From Alphaproteobacteria bacterium (GTDB lineage Bacteria > Pseudomonadota > Alphaproteobacteria > Methylaequorales > Methylaequoraceae), in contig JBJKUR010000012.1 in the NCBI GenBank assembly GCA_045563055.1, positions 22,859 to 86,858 on the forward strand: 64,000 nt of DNA. The letters are read 5' to 3'. Below, in pieces: positions 5,200 to 64,000 of the stretch (the stretch's first letter is position 1; each line of letters starts with the position of its first letter). The notes beneath the pieces are model-generated. The model searched no databases and was not told the origin of the DNA. It saw only the letters and a program-made list of their open reading frames with translations. The position numbers and the translations under genes were made by a program.

Positions 5200-5220
5200 C
5201 AAAAAAATTATACAATTATA

Positions 5221-5553
5221 CTAGATGGTCTGTAAGCCGGATTCTGTACCTAAAAAGGTTGTGACTATTAATCTTGAATTGCTGTTACCAACAATCTCTA
5301 GCGTCCCACCAAACCATTGTGCAGAGCCACACTTATTAGGCTATCTTGGACTTGCTCCCAAAGGGGTTTACAATGCCATTTTTGTTGCCAAAAACGCGGT
5401 GAGCTCTTACCCCACCATTTCAACCTTACCTTAAAAGGCGGTATATTTTCTGTTGCACTTTCCCTGAGGTTGCCCTCGCCGGGAATTACCCGGCTTTGGT
5501 GCTCTGATGAGTCCGGACTTTCCTCCTTAAAAGGCAGTCACACAACCATCTAG
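5221..5553 (-). ncRNA. rnpB: RNase P RNA (bacterial type A)
   Basis: The minus strand contains GGAGGAAAGTCCGGACTC (P4 5' strand) and ACAGAATCCGGCTTACAGACC (P4 3' strand). The termini TAGATGGT and ACCATCTA pair as P1. The region is locally GC-rich, and the two plus-strand ORFs listed here are artefacts. Confidence 0.85.
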
Positions 5554-26536: not shown

Positions 26537-26653
26537 AAGATTAAAATAAATCTTTAAGAAAATAAGAACAAACAAAAGTGTGTTGCACTGAAATTGTCTT
26601 GTTTTCCCTATTTTTTTTAAGAGTGCATCCTCTGAAATCTCTTGAGAGTCTTC

Positions 26654-26705
26654 CTAAAACAAACAAGGGCGAACAATTGCCCGCCCTTGCCGATGAGACT
26701 TCTGT
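26654..26705. repeat. 52-bp perfect direct repeat, copy B (the 3' end of the tmRNA gene itself)
   Basis: It is identical to 25153-25204, offset by 1501 bp. Confidence 0.9.
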
Positions 26706-26940
26706 TGCCCGGTGTCATCATGACCGCGCTTTCTTAATTAATTAAGCAGCGAGTGCCATTTCATTATCGTTGGCAATTATAAAGTTTGGTCCGATAACGT
26801 TGGTACCATTCCGAGCAAAGTTTTGACCCATCCCACGCACGTCGATCCTATTTCGCCCCCATTGGTGGAGGCGCCGGGTACCGCCCCCGGGTCCGTATCG
26901 GTTCAAAATCAAACATTTATCGCCATAGCTGCAAAGCAGC
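26654..26940 (-). ncRNA. ssrA: tmRNA (ssrA), circularly permuted two-piece form; the 5' boundary is approximate
   Basis: The minus strand reads CCGGG-GGCGGTA-CCCGG (T-arm), then CGCCTCC-ACCA. After AT comes GGGGGCGAAATAGGATCGACG (5' acceptor strand and conserved GGAUCGACG). The two strands pair, including a G3:U70 wobble. The tag frame GCC AAC GAT AAT GAA ATG GCA CTC GCT GCT TAA gives ANDNEMALAA (26774->26742). The gene ends in a stem-loop plus TTTGTTTT. The acceptor piece preceding the coding piece matches the alphaproteobacterial permuted arrangement. Confidence 0.85.
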
Positions 26941-27024
26941 ATTTCAATCATAAATTATCTATAAAAAAATAAAACCAATAAATTGTTTTAATTAAAAAAT
27001 CAGTTATCCTCTATAATAAATTAA

Positions 27025-60974: not shown

Positions 60975-62306
60975 ATGGGTAGTACGTTTGATATAATTCT
61001 TGCTGGAGGTGATGTTGTCCTTCCTTCGATGAAAATAGAGAAGTTAGATGTAGGGATAACGAGCTCAAAAGTCAGTGAATTGGGTGATCTTTCCCGCGCA
61101 AATTGTAAAGAAAGAATTAATTTAAAAGGTTTATTAATTATTCCAGGAGCTATTGATACGCAAGTTCATTTTAGAGAACCTGGTCTAACTCATAAGGAAG
61201 ATATATTCCATGGAACTAAGGGAGCCATACTTGGCGGAGTTACAACAATCTTCGAGATGCCTAATACAAATCCACCAACAACTAACTCGATTGAGTTAAA
61301 AAAGAAGGTGCAAATAGCTGAAAAAAATGCATTCTGTAATTTTAGTTTTTTTATTGGAGCAAGCAAAGAAAATATAGAAAACATAAATAAACTGGAGAAT
61401 GAGCCTGGTTGCTGTGGTGTTAAAATATTTATGGGTTCTTCTACTGGAGATCTTTTAGTTGAGGACGATGAGCATATCCTTAGAATTCTTAAAGTAGCAA
61501 AAAGAATGGTTGCTGTACATAGTGAGGATGAATTCAGACTTAGAGAGAGGAAAAATCTTTTTTCTAATAACGATATTTCTGTTTTAGATCATCCTAAGAT
61601 TAGAGATGTATTATCAGCTGTAACGAGCACAAAAAGACTTATAAATTCAGCTAAAAGAGCAAATAAAAAAATTCATATATTGCATATTTCAACCAAAGAG
61701 GAAATTCCAATATTAAGAGAAAATAAAGAAATATCATCGTGTGAAGTAACACCTCAACATTTATTTTTTAGTTCACCTGAATGTTATGAGACTCTTGGTA
61801 GTCTGACTCAAATGAACCCTCCAATAAGAGATAAATCACACAAAGAAAGCCTATGGAGGGCTCTTGCTGATGGTGTTATAGATGTGATTGGCTCTGATCA
61901 CGCTCCTCATACTTTAGATGAAAAAAAAAGAAAATACCCAAGTTCACCATCTGGTATGACTGGAGTTCAAACTTTACTTCCTATAATGTTAAACTTTGTA
62001 AATCAAGGTAAGCTATCGATCTTTGATCTTGTGAGGATGGTTGCTGTCAAACCAAGTGAAATTTATAATATTAAAAATAAAGGTAAAATAAAAGTTGGGT
62101 TTGATGCAGATCTAGCAATCATTGACATGAAACAGGAATTCAGGGTTTCGAATGAATGGATAGCGAGTAAATCCAAGTGGACACCTTATGACAATGTTAA
62201 AATTAAAGGCATACCAGTTTTCACTATTGTGAACGGAAAAATAGTGATGCGTGATCATGATGTTGTTCAGAATTCAGCTGGTCAAAAAGTTCAGTTTAAA
62301 GCTTAA
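60975..62306 (+). CDS. pyrC: Dihydroorotase (cyclic amidohydrolase family)
   Basis: The metal ligands are present: DTQVHFREPG, KIFMG and GSDHAPH. Confidence 0.8.
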   Translation: MGSTFDIILAGGDVVLPSMKIEKLDVGITSSKVSELGDLSRANCKERINLKGLLIIPGAIDTQVHFREPGLTHKEDIFHGTKGAILGGVTTIFEMPNTNPPTTNSIELKKKVQIAEKNAFCNFSFFIGASKENIENINKLENEPGCCGVKIFMGSSTGDLLVEDDEHILRILKVAKRMVAVHSEDEFRLRERKNLFSNNDISVLDHPKIRDVLSAVTSTKRLINSAKRANKKIHILHISTKEEIPILRENKEISSCEVTPQHLFFSSPECYETLGSLTQMNPPIRDKSHKESLWRALADGVIDVIGSDHAPHTLDEKKRKYPSSPSGMTGVQTLLPIMLNFVNQGKLSIFDLVRMVAVKPSEIYNIKNKGKIKVGFDADLAIIDMKQEFRVSNEWIASKSKWTPYDNVKIKGIPVFTIVNGKIVMRDHDVVQNSAGQKVQFKA

Positions 62307-62469
62307 TTTCTTTTATTTTTGTAACAAAGATGGATCTTCCATCAAAGTTGTATTGAGTCTCAGCTTTTCTAATAGCAATCTTCTTAGCAATTTCTAGGTC
62401 TGAAGCTTGAACTGTTTCAAATGTTTTTCCATAAATTGGAATTTCTAATTCAACATCGTACCATTTCAT
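62296..62469 (-). CDS. Unlisted 57-aa small protein, translationally coupled to the upstream symporter
   Basis: Its ATG forms an ATGA overlap with the symporter stop at 62466-62469. The peptide is MKWYDVELEIPIYGKTFETVQASDLEIAKKIAIRKAETQYNFDGRSIFVTKIKEIKL. Its 3' end overlaps the convergent pyrC end by 11 nt. Confidence 0.4.
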   Translation of the reverse strand: MKWYDVELEIPIYGKTFETVQASDLEIAKKIAIRKAETQYNFDGRSIFVTKIKEIKL

Positions 62470-63674
62470 TTTTCACCCTTGTTAACGACAATTGATACCA
62501 TTGCATCTCCAGAAATATTTACGGAGGTTCTTAACATATCTAAAAATCTGTCAACTCCCATCACTATGGCAATACCTTCTAGTGGTAAACCAACCTGATT
62601 TAAAACCATTCCCAACATAATAATGCCTACTCCAGGAACTCCTGCAGTTCCAATTGAAGCAAGAGTTGCGGTGATAATTATTGATATATAATCTAAAAAT
62701 AAAAGCTCTATACCATAAATGTTAGCAATGAAAACGGTTGCAATACCCTGCATAATGGCTGTTCCATCCATATTGATTGTTGCACCTAATGGGACTGTAA
62801 AAGCTGCAACATTTTCCTTAATAGAAAAGTTTTTTTTTAAACAATTTAAAGTGACTGGTATCGTAGCAGTACTGCTTGAAGTTGAAAAAGAAAATAATAA
62901 AGCATCCTTAATTCCTAAAAAGAAATTCTTATAGGTAACTTTTCCATAGAACTTTATTACTGGTAAATAAATTAAAAAAACATGAAGGAATAAAACAAAA
63001 GCTACTAAAAGAAAATATTTGAGTAACTCCAAAATCGAATTTAATCCTTGAGTTGCAAAAGTCTTTGATATTAAACAAAAAATACCAAAAGGGGCTATAG
63101 TCATTACAAATGATAAAATTTGCATTACTACCTGGTTAAATTCGTTGAAAAATTTTTTGATTACCATTGTATTCTTTAAAACTGATATTGAACTTCCAAT
63201 TAAAATTGAAAACAGAATTACTTGAAGCATTTCTCCTTCTACAAGTGATGCAAAAGGATTGTTCGGAATAATATTTAGTAAAATATCAAAGAAAGAGGGT
63301 GGGTTTGTTATTTCAATATCTGTTGCAACAGAGTTTCTTCCAAAACCCTGCCCTGGTTGTATGATATTAGCCAAAAACAAAGACATTGTTATAGCAATGC
63401 AGGTAGTTAAGAGGTAGATCAAAATTGATTTAGACCCAATTCTACCAAGTGATGCAATATTCCTAAGATTTGCAACACCATTTACTAACGAGAAAAAAAC
63501 AATTGGAACTACAAGCATTTTAATTGTTTTTAAAAAAACATCTCCACCGAAAGAGAGAAAAACTAATAAATTATTATGTATATGAACTGGTAAATTTGAA
63601 ACATTCAAGATAACTCCAAAAAAAACTCCTAGCATGAAGCCAATGAAAATATTTTGTGTAAGATTGTTTTTCAT
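62466..63674 (-). CDS. Dicarboxylate/amino acid:cation symporter (DAACS family)
   Basis: It is a polytopic protein with the DAACS motifs FLKTIKMLVVPIVF, the SSSTATIPV hairpin and NMDGTA. Confidence 0.85.
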   Translation of the reverse strand: MKNNLTQNIFIGFMLGVFFGVILNVSNLPVHIHNNLLVFLSFGGDVFLKTIKMLVVPIVFFSLVNGVANLRNIASLGRIGSKSILIYLLTTCIAITMSLFLANIIQPGQGFGRNSVATDIEITNPPSFFDILLNIIPNNPFASLVEGEMLQVILFSILIGSSISVLKNTMVIKKFFNEFNQVVMQILSFVMTIAPFGIFCLISKTFATQGLNSILELLKYFLLVAFVLFLHVFLIYLPVIKFYGKVTYKNFFLGIKDALLFSFSTSSSTATIPVTLNCLKKNFSIKENVAAFTVPLGATINMDGTAIMQGIATVFIANIYGIELLFLDYISIIITATLASIGTAGVPGVGIIMLGMVLNQVGLPLEGIAIVMGVDRFLDMLRTSVNISGDAMVSIVVNKGEK

Positions 63675-63676
63675 AT

Positions 63677-63750
63677 TGGTGCCCTCTACTGGTTACGCTC
63701 CAGTGGCTGAGTCTTACCAAGACCCTGTTTTACTATTAAACTAAGAGGGC
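63677..63750 (-). tRNA. tRNA-Thr(GGU)-shaped gene or element with non-canonical D and T loops
   Basis: It folds as a 74-nt cloverleaf. The parts in order are GCCCTCT, TA, GTTT-AATAGTA-AAAC, A, GGGTC-TTGGTAA-GACTC, AGCC, ACTGG-AGCGTAA-CCAGT, AGAGGGC, A and CCA. U8, A14, A21, U33, A37, C56 and G57 are present. The T-loop is not TTCRANN and the D-loop lacks GG. Confidence 0.55.
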
Positions 63751-64000
63751 AAATGAGTTTGCCCATTCTAACTTTTTTAAACCTTACAAACATTAAACAT
63801 TTAAGCAAACAATTTTATTTGATTTAATTATTCCACCGTTAATAAAAATATCACATAAAAGTTACTTTTATTATTGTTGATAACAAGTTTTATTTAAATA
63901 TTTAACTAAAATTTTAATATTTAATGATATTGTATTGGCAAAATTATTATGAAAAATAATAGAGAAATAAATTTAAAAGTAATTTTAAAAAAGGTCAAAG

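Follow-up and report, generated by a model that had tools for sequence, protein, structure and literature searches.

The elbow contacts T54·A58, G18·Ψ55 and G19·C56 are treated as near-universal in tRNA. Staphylococcal cell-wall tRNA-Gly species, which have altered D and T loops, are kept from the ribosome or EF-Tu, and in E. coli the threonine tRNA gene thrT lies in the thrU-tyrU-glyT-thrT-tufB operon. Eukaryotic initiator tRNA (A54·A58) and tRNA-Ala with A54/A58 are functional and keep the T-loop fold (PMC7912444, PMC7566577), and the G19:C56 pair forms the outer face that is recognized by RNase P and the ribosome (PMC4810234). In this study, we analysed a 64,000-nucleotide (nt) stretch of DNA (the window) from contig JBJKUR010000012.1 of an uncultured, AT-rich (~30% GC) marine alphaproteobacterium, at one end of which a tRNA-Thr(GGU) with an altered elbow stands 2 nt ahead of the start codon of a symporter gene. 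An earlier note on this sequence had offered two readings of the element, a genuine but atypical tRNA-Thr(GGU) and a tRNA-mimic leader of the transporter mRNA. The first of these is upheld by the invariance of the element, its identity set and class-wide covariation. Judged from sequence, the element is almost certainly a functional tRNA-Thr(GGU) that decodes ACU/ACC, and we think it likely that this alternative-elbow tRNA is co-transcribed with the symporter and that their abutment reflects a habit of this compact genome.

The tRNA-Thr(GGU) element and its conservation

63677..63750, minus strand: tRNA-Thr(GGU) gene, 74 nt, CCA encoded (ARAGORN, Rfam, fold, conservation, class-wide covariation)

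ARAGORN calls the element at 63677-63750 (-) as tRNA-Thr(ggt), and the Rfam tRNA model RF00005, when this region was searched alone, scores 49.4 bits (E 1.2e-9) over 63680-63750, compared with a gathering score of 29; both scorings had been proposed in the earlier note. A whole-window Rfam run with fast filters did not list the gene. The cloverleaf is the minimum-energy fold (-24.5 kcal/mol, z -2.58), and direct reading and covariance-model alignment give stems of 7, 4, 5 and 5 bp (acceptor, D, anticodon and T). Read along the minus strand from 63750 to 63677, the RNA is GCCCUCU-UA-GUUU-AAUAGUA-AAAC-A-GGGUC-UUGGUAA-GACUC-AGCC-ACUGG-AGCGUAA-CCAGU-AGAGGGC-A-CCA. The D-loop, AAUAGUA (7 nt), has A at position 18 and retains G19; the T-loop, AGCGUAA, has A54, G55, C56, G57 and U58; the anticodon loop is UUGGUAA, the variable loop AGCC (4 nt) and the discriminator A. 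In the Rfam alignment the place of G18 is taken by A and that of T54-Ψ55-C56-R57-A58 by A-G-C-G-U, and of the canonical elbow set (G18, G19, T54, Ψ55, C56, A58) only G19 and C56 are present.

Outside the elbow, the general features of a tRNA are all in place (U8, A14, A21, U33, a purine at 37 and the 3' CCA). The bacterial Thr identity set includes G1:C72 and C2:G71 (PMC9976931), and the window tRNA has both pairs together with the anticodon G34/G35/U36; the accessory pairs G4:C69 and G5:C68 of the same list (PMC9976931) are absent, their places being taken by C4:G69 and U5:A68. Direct reading, ARAGORN and Rfam thus confirm the 74-nt cloverleaf, the loop readings, the encoded CCA and the Thr identity set that the earlier note had described. 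ACU and ACC make up 383 of the 741 Thr codons (52%) in 52 open reading frames (ORFs) of the window, and a GGU decoder is therefore needed. Maturation by RNase P, charging by threonyl-tRNA synthetase (ThrRS) and use by the ribosome are all probable. The gene has presumably been annotated already by the NCBI pipeline in the source metagenome-assembled genome.

We sought relatives of the symporter in 185,579 species genomes, and the closest came from two 'Alphaproteobacteria bacterium' assemblies at 71% identity and one at 60%. All three of these closest genomic relatives carry an identical tRNA-Thr that ends exactly 2 nt ahead of the ATG; in their alignment 74/74 tRNA nt are identical while neither flank can be aligned. 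A metagenome scan added about 40 more copies among the matches listed. Across 36 distinct upstream contexts (again among the matches listed) the tRNA-Thr is 100% identical, whereas the symporters are 52-100% identical, and CCA is encoded in 41/42 copies. Every clade context with enough sequence (33/33) has the tRNA upstream of the symporter, contrary to the absence from orthologous loci that would have spoken against the earlier note. Invariance over 74 nt amid symporters diverged to as little as 52% and flanks that cannot be aligned therefore points to strong purifying selection on a real tRNA. The tRNA-Phe(GAA) of the same clade has an ordinary GG D-loop and the T-arm GGTTCAATTCC, and it scores 69 bits compared with the lower 49 bits of tRNA-Thr. 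Because this tRNA-Phe is canonical, the odd loops are specific to tRNA-Thr and are not, as might have been supposed, common to all tRNAs of the lineage. No second tRNA-Thr(GGU) was found in the 64-kb window or in ~400 kb of contigs from the clade that cover the surroundings of this locus. The Pelagibacter tRNA complement is about 32 per genome (30-36) (bioRxiv 10.64898/2026.04.03.716430), and genomes of this kind would leave little room for a second GGU gene.

The alternative-elbow class: covariation and distribution

To place the element in a wider class, we searched with the anticodon loop and T-loop core only (TTGGTAA-N12/13-GGAGCGTAACC). This pattern matched 21 IMG/VR contigs, nearly all within phage tRNA arrays of up to 30 genes (<=30), and gave at least 120 matches in metagenomes; Thr(GGU) with a canonical T-loop is commoner in IMG/VR, with at least 120 matches compared with 21 for the alternative-elbow class. 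In the phage arrays the class member is the only Thr(GGU) called, adjoining Thr(UGU) and Thr(CGU). Although the D-loop lay outside the search pattern, every full-length match has the D-loop A-(A)-U-A-G-N-A. The 27 distinct class sequences from the clade, SAR11 and phage arrays (among the matches listed) differ widely in all four stems, yet pairing holds in 96.6% of cells and two-sided changes are seen in 18 of 21 pairs, for a covariation score of 0.815 compared with 0.23 for shuffled sequences and 0.06-0.13 when partners are slid. The members keep C2:G71 (27/27) and G1:C72 (26/27), neither pair having been part of the search pattern.

The earlier note had proposed that positions 18 and 55, and positions 54 and 58, changed together. 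We examined this in other tRNAs at the fetched loci, parsing D and T loops from ARAGORN calls with our own simple rules, in a set where ARAGORN under-detects the class of interest. The loci had been chosen by Thr(GGU) patterns, hence all Thr(GGU) tRNAs were excluded, and 1,259 other tRNAs were counted:

G55 tRNAs: D-loop AG in 55, GG in 3
T55 tRNAs: D-loop AG in 16, GG in 1075

Among tRNAs with an AG or GG D-loop, G55 is associated with A18 at a Fisher p of 2e-75, and at p = 5e-28 in the loci picked by the canonical Thr pattern. Positions 54/58 are TA in 1187, AT in 41, AA in 9 and TT in 2, the double swap being several times commoner than either single change. Both joint changes are therefore borne out by the 1,259-tRNA comparison. 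The same elbow occurs in phage Ile, Val, His, Met, Glu and Pro tRNAs, and in other phage tRNAs the 19:56 Watson-Crick pair is replaced by A:U, U:A or C:G.

On these sequence comparisons, the window tRNA is two recurrent compensated substitutions combined in one molecule with G19:C56 kept, and its departure from the canonical elbow looks compensated rather than degenerate. G18·Ψ55 would be replaced by A18·G55, and the reverse-Hoogsteen T54·A58 by A54·U58; that these partners pair within the elbow is something we infer from their covariation. The L-shape should be preserved, as G19:C56 is kept. Our literature search returned no description of an A18-G55 or A54-U58 tRNA class, an absence that proves nothing about publication. 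We likewise could not find, in the literature retrieved, an account of this elbow class, of its having become fixed in SAR11 and in another marine clade, or of the conserved tRNA-ORF abutment.

Further compensated elbow classes are seen in the phage arrays (loci L081-L101 and L228-L347). The T-loop UUUGAAU (U56) occurs with an A19 D-loop; UUAAAAU and UUAGAGU (A56) occur with U19; UGGGACU (G55 G56) occurs with A18 C19; and UGCAAGU (G55) occurs with A18. In the first 21 phage arrays, T-loops other than TTCRA are found in about 30% of tRNAs.

Two sequence types dominate the marine matches, type A, which is the window tRNA, and type B, GCCCCUAUCGCUUAAUAGUAAAGCAGGUCAUUGGUAAUGAUCAGCCGCUGGAGCGUAACCAGCUAGGGGCACCA. 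Type B shares its loops and variable loop with type A and differs in the acceptor, D and anticodon stems. Proteins encoded beside one type B copy fall into ≥90% clusters with an NCBI protein that carries the label 'Pelagibacterales bacterium', and we therefore take type B to be the SAR11 version. On SAR11-type contigs the class tRNA is unlinked to any symporter. Detection is uneven across tools: type B scores about 50 bits with Rfam, and ARAGORN makes no call for it (L103 9924-9994 (-), L120 12083-12153 (-)), for three other variants (also L118, L201 and L214) or for several phage copies, while default Rfam filters miss type A copies (the window, L001, L003) and a phage-array copy (L096). Single-tool pipelines can therefore wrongly report genomes as lacking tRNA-Thr(GGU).

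A blastn search of 50,697 GenBank phage records found no match to the window or SAR11 tRNA, nor to an attP (phage attachment site) half-site. A pooled query of 13 phage variants gave only a weak match, the annotated tRNA-Ile of a cultured T5-like Klebsiella phage (OY979429.1), in which 54/58 are swapped (A54/U58) while G18, G19 and U55 are normal.

Islands on SAR11-type contigs are flanked by direct repeats, the tRNA-Thr(GGU) on one side and a copy of its 3' part on the other (L110 72-126 and 7317-7371; also L121, L151, L169, L182 and L196). The repeat copy begins at the anticodon loop, ends with the CCA and in many cases has AGGAAACC ahead of it, and the cargo of the L110 island includes a Type I restriction-modification system (HsdR/M/S). 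Bracketing by attachment-site (att)-like 3'-half repeats, which real tRNA genes also show, speaks for the SAR11-type tRNA being a real gene. One and the same tRNA 5' half is found with either of two T-stems, GCTGG/CCAGC or ACCGG/CCGGT, as would be expected if integrating elements replace the 3' half of the tRNA. Reported pelagiphage integration sites do not include tRNA-Thr (bioRxiv 10.1101/410191), and we did not find tRNA-Thr described in the literature as a SAR11 integration site. One type B metagenome locus has a second tRNA-Thr(ggt)-like ARAGORN call with canonical loops and no encoded CCA, TCTCCCTTAGTTTAATGGTAAAACACGTCCTTGGTAAGGACGAGCTTCGAGTTCAATTCTCGAAGGGAGAA, which may sit on an integrated element.

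The phage arrays hold other RNA genes. A GOLLD RNA (RF02032, 175 bits; L081 759-1226 (+)) is found among the tRNA genes of a phage array, and a tRNA-Asn is called inside it at 822-895. ARAGORN 'tRNA-Pyl' calls with anticodon CUA (L081 3910-3984, L083 10626-10701, L097 4803-4877) are probably amber-suppressor tRNAs. Transfer-messenger RNA (tmRNA) genes in these arrays are permuted (two-piece) in L082 and L083 and standard in L088.

The junction, the symporter and the probable transcription unit

63675..63676, minus strand: spacer AT, 2 nt, from the CCA end to the start codon (read directly)
62466..63674, minus strand: symporter, 402 aa, sodium/proton:dicarboxylate family (Pfam SDF), closest to the GltP/GltPh type
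62296..62469, minus strand: 57-aa ORF with a 4-nt overlap with the symporter stop (in the gene tables of L222-L227)
62329..62343, minus strand: weak terminator-like hairpin within the 57-aa ORF (pattern scan, 2 sites compared with 0.9 expected)
63765..63770, minus strand: TAGAAT, -10-like hexamer and candidate promoter element, 14 nt upstream of tRNA +1
63747..63764, minus strand: hairpin GGGCAAA-CTCA-TTTGCCC (scan), its 3' arm overlapping tRNA positions 1-4
tRNA-Phe(GAA) loci in clade contigs: L001 2883-2966 (-), L002, L150, L154, L172, L202

Direct reading and Pfam bear out the CCA-AT-ATG junction with an SDF-family symporter that the earlier note had described. In the clade the symporter always follows tRNA-Thr and always starts with ATG, and the spacer is A/T-rich and variable in sequence. 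Nineteen contexts have 2 nt, six have a single nt, ten have 3-8 nt and one has 16 nt. In the window, the 2 nt leave no space for a separate leader. In L214, a sister tRNA variant, the symporter lies 13 nt downstream. No start earlier than the ATG at 63674 is possible, given an in-frame TAA 21 nt ahead of it, and symporter homologues from other phyla align from residue 1-4.

The symporter scores 415 bits against Pfam SDF (PF00375). Its NCBIfam scores, all below cut-offs, are 253 bits for GltP, 222 for DctA and 128 for SstT, and its best PDB match is an 'Aspartate transporter' (9bgz, E 2e-102), with GltPh at ~1e-78. By eye, the motif DRFLDMLRTSVNISGD (...LDMLRT..., transmembrane segment 8) retains an Asp and an Arg, which we take to be the residues that in GltPh bind the amino and side-chain carboxylate groups of the substrate. 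The protein probably carries aspartate/glutamate, its substrate being deduced from these matches rather than assigned. The link to Ser/Thr transporters that the earlier note had drawn is not supported, with SstT at 128 bits compared with a cut-off of 308 and the best matches being GltP/GltPh and an aspartate transporter.

The absence of a Shine-Dalgarno (SD) sequence, also remarked on in the earlier note, holds for the 2-nt spacer and is no peculiarity of this gene: SD-like motifs (GGAG/GAGG/AGGA/AAGG within 25 nt) precede only ~10/58 long window ORFs, and many window genes overlap or stand a few bases apart. Translation initiation in this organism must, on this count, be largely SD-independent. 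The 3' acceptor strand does contain an SD-like GAGG, 8 nt ahead of the ATG; a role for it, with sequestration by the stem, was considered and dropped, given that SD sequences are rare here and that this sequence is fixed by the tRNA. Abutment of a tRNA on an ORF is also seen for the clade's tRNA-Phe(GAA), which has an ORF 4-7 nt downstream in 6/6 loci. That ORF is conserved, encodes ~231 aa with a signal-peptide/lipobox-like N-terminus and has no Pfam match. Because tRNA-Phe is arranged likewise, abutment is a habit of this compact genome and not a Thr-specific regulatory device.

Upstream of the tRNA, the TAGAAT hexamer is present at 63770-63765, as the earlier note had read it, and several subgroups, though not every one, have a similar TAGAGT/TAGAAT hexamer 9-15 nt ahead of the tRNA. 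The promoter scan gave 10 sites compared with 8.7 ± 3.1 expected, which is the chance level. The hairpin GGGCAAA-CTCA-TTTGCCC is present and overlaps tRNA positions 1-4, as noted earlier; the competition with the acceptor stem that had been ascribed to it is not supported, since among relatives the hairpin is confined to the nearest ones (L180, L222), with L001-L003 and ~30 other contexts lacking it. It is probably incidental, and as L001-L003 and the majority of the 36 contexts are without it, we rejected it as a switch.

Where a contig encodes the identical symporter, the unit runs ~198 nt spacer, tRNA, 2 nt, symporter and 57-aa ORF. Every public contig that has this symporter also has a call for the 57-aa ORF, which has no Pfam or family match and may share the transcription unit. 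The genes upstream of the unit are divergent (a 34-aa ORF, MazG-like, dCTP deaminase, EPSP-synthase-family and HisG), and downstream the unit is closed by a convergent 443-aa amidohydrolase/dihydroorotase-like gene (60975-62306, +) whose 3' end the 57-aa ORF overlaps by 11 nt. Because the upstream genes are divergent and the downstream gene convergent, one shared upstream promoter is most likely; a single promoter in the ~200 nt upstream of the tRNA would drive both tRNA and symporter. RNase P and a 3' cut adjoining the CCA would release the tRNA, and the symporter mRNA would be left with a 0-8-nt leader and be translated without an SD sequence, like most genes of this genome. Alternatively, a given transcript might give rise to the tRNA or to a translatable mRNA but not to both, and this choice would then fix the proportion of the two. 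Abutment and the layout of the unit thus make the co-transcription and the almost leaderless mRNA proposed in the earlier note probable; the excision step is one that we infer.

Elsewhere in the window, which has only this one tRNA gene, there are a class A RNase P RNA (5217-5553 (-), 283 bits) and a two-piece (permuted) alphaproteobacterial tmRNA (26651-26978 (-)) with the tag ANDNEMALAA.

Alternative explanations, significance and known systems

Several points weigh against a functional tRNA-Thr(GGU) co-transcribed with the symporter. Upstream of the tRNA we found no conserved promoter, these regions being unalignable and their consensus matches at chance. A 3' cut 1-2 nt before the AUG could equally destroy the mRNA, making the near-leaderless mRNA a conjecture, and the processing, expression and charging of the tRNA are predictions. 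A canonical tRNA-Thr(GGU) could be present elsewhere in the genome, beyond the sequences examined. Finally, our literature search found no structure showing the geometry of A18·G55 or A54·U58.

If such a canonical gene does the decoding, the window element could be a specialised, non-proteinogenic or poorly decoding tRNA, and its loss of G18, T54 and Ψ55 does recall the staphylococcal cell-wall tRNA-Gly. We consider this very unlikely: in phage arrays the class supplies the only GGU Thr tRNA called, beside UGU and CGU, genomes with ~32 tRNAs leave little space for duplicates, and recurrence of the elbow in phage Ile, Val, His, Met, Glu and Pro tRNAs suggests a general structural alternative. 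That the element is a decaying pseudogene or a chance cloverleaf has next to no credibility. A score of 49 bits compared with 69 for a canonical tRNA, and its being missed by standard filters, would fit such decay, but perfect identity across a clade whose proteins have diverged to 52-60%, together with strong class-wide compensatory changes, already refutes it. The tRNA-mimic leader of the earlier note, tying the symporter to ThrRS, RNase P or the charging of tRNA-Thr in the manner of E. coli thrS, is in our judgement highly improbable. The tRNA-symporter linkage is kept in all 33 clade contexts with a 1-16-nt spacer, and in L214 with 13 nt, and the start codon is so close that a folded tRNA would be bound to affect initiation on the unprocessed transcript. 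However, coupling to ThrRS or charging is countered by the transporter type (GltP/GltPh-like, not SstT), by class copies that are unlinked to the symporter in SAR11 and present in phage tRNA arrays, by tRNA-Phe, which likewise abuts an unrelated lipoprotein-like ORF, and by the proposed competing hairpin, which is not conserved. Known aminoacyl-tRNA synthetase operators copy anticodon arms and have no acceptor arm with CCA (PMC9976931). Here, the downstream gene looks unrelated to ThrRS or threonine supply and the element is not confined to a leader position. Invariance of all 74 nt also suits a decoder better than a leader.

Another alternative would be adjacency without co-transcription, with the symporter transcript starting within the tRNA gene or at its 3' end. 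Tiny intergenic spacers and many overlapping genes throughout the window are compatible with this, and an invariant tRNA could hide a promoter, as conservation cannot separate the two roles. Yet a consensus scan finds no promoter-like site within 63677-63750 on the minus strand; by our own reading, the -10 for a leaderless ATG start would be GAGGGC, unlike any sigma-70 -10; and the unit has no sizeable non-coding DNA apart from the ~100-200-nt A/T-rich stretch ahead of the tRNA. We therefore regard an internal promoter as unlikely. A bolder proposal, which we put forward only as a long shot, is that the A18·G55/A54·U58 elbow is a distinct, selected architecture that cannot take the universal T54, Ψ55, Gm18 or m1A58 modifications, that spread between phages and cells, for example by replacement of 3' halves at att sites, and is combined with tRNA punctuation. 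If true, this elbow would have displaced the canonical tRNA-Thr(GGU) in SAR11 and the neighbouring marine clade, perhaps via escape from an elbow- or T-loop-directed nuclease or toxin. A strong tRNA promoter would then drive the transporter, and excision would create a leaderless mRNA, a free-living alphaproteobacterial counterpart of mitochondrial punctuation.

For the reading that we favour, an alternative-elbow tRNA-Thr(GGU) that probably shares its transcript with the symporter, the hypothesis of a tRNA-mimic riboregulator of a threonine transporter falls, while the structural observation stands and generalises. It points to a natural compensated alternative for two of the three elbow contacts, fixed in some of the ocean's most abundant bacteria and recurrent in phage arrays, and thereby to a defined natural elbow variant for structural biologists to solve. 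Such a tRNA is not modifiable by TruB, TrmA/TrmFO or TrmH at the usual sites. The arrangement of a tRNA, 1-8 nt and an ORF, seen for both Thr and Phe, bears on how leaderless, SD-free genes are expressed in streamlined oligotrophs.

Among described systems, the E. coli thrS operator resembles the window element in placing a threonine-anticodon stem-loop upstream of a start codon. The operator mimics the anticodon arm only, has no acceptor arm or CCA and controls ThrRS (PMC9976931), whereas the window has a complete tRNA upstream of an Asp/Glu-type transporter. E. coli thrT is closer: it has the same anticodon, G1:C72, C2:G71, G35, U36, A37 after U36 and an encoded CCA, and, as in the window, a protein gene lies downstream and is probably co-transcribed. 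In E. coli, however, tRNA and ORF are ~100 nt apart and the ORF has a ribosome-binding site to itself, compared with a gap of 1-8 nt here. Canonical tRNA-Thr has G18/Ψ55/T54/A58 where the window tRNA has A18/G55/A54/U58, and the window tRNA also has a minimal D-loop of 7 nt and a variable loop of 4 nt. The eukaryotic A54 tRNAs share the replacement of T54 by a purine and differ in keeping A58 and G18/Ψ55, while the window tRNA swaps both 54 and 58 (A54·U58) and alters 18/55 as well.

The closest parallels to the elbow are in phages. The tRNA-Ile of the T5-like Klebsiella phage has the same A54/U58 swap, uncultured phages carry the full AGCGUAA and AAUAG in Thr, Ile, Val and His tRNAs, and a close variant, AGCGUUA, is found in their Met and Glu tRNAs; the difference is that here the class is fixed in free-living cells, apparently as the standing tRNA-Thr(GGU). 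The closest parallel to the junction is mitochondrial tRNA punctuation, where tRNAs are cut out of polycistronic transcripts and leaderless mRNAs are left; there, a tRNA likewise abuts a start codon, there is no SD sequence and loop conservation is reduced, a likeness that extends to the alphaproteobacterial host. Mitochondrial tRNAs have no encoded CCA and are cut by RNase Z after the discriminator, whereas the window tRNA encodes its CCA. Moreover, the window cloverleaf and G19:C56 are intact, only two tRNA-ORF junctions (Thr and Phe) are seen, and the tRNA would have to be excised in the manner that we predict.

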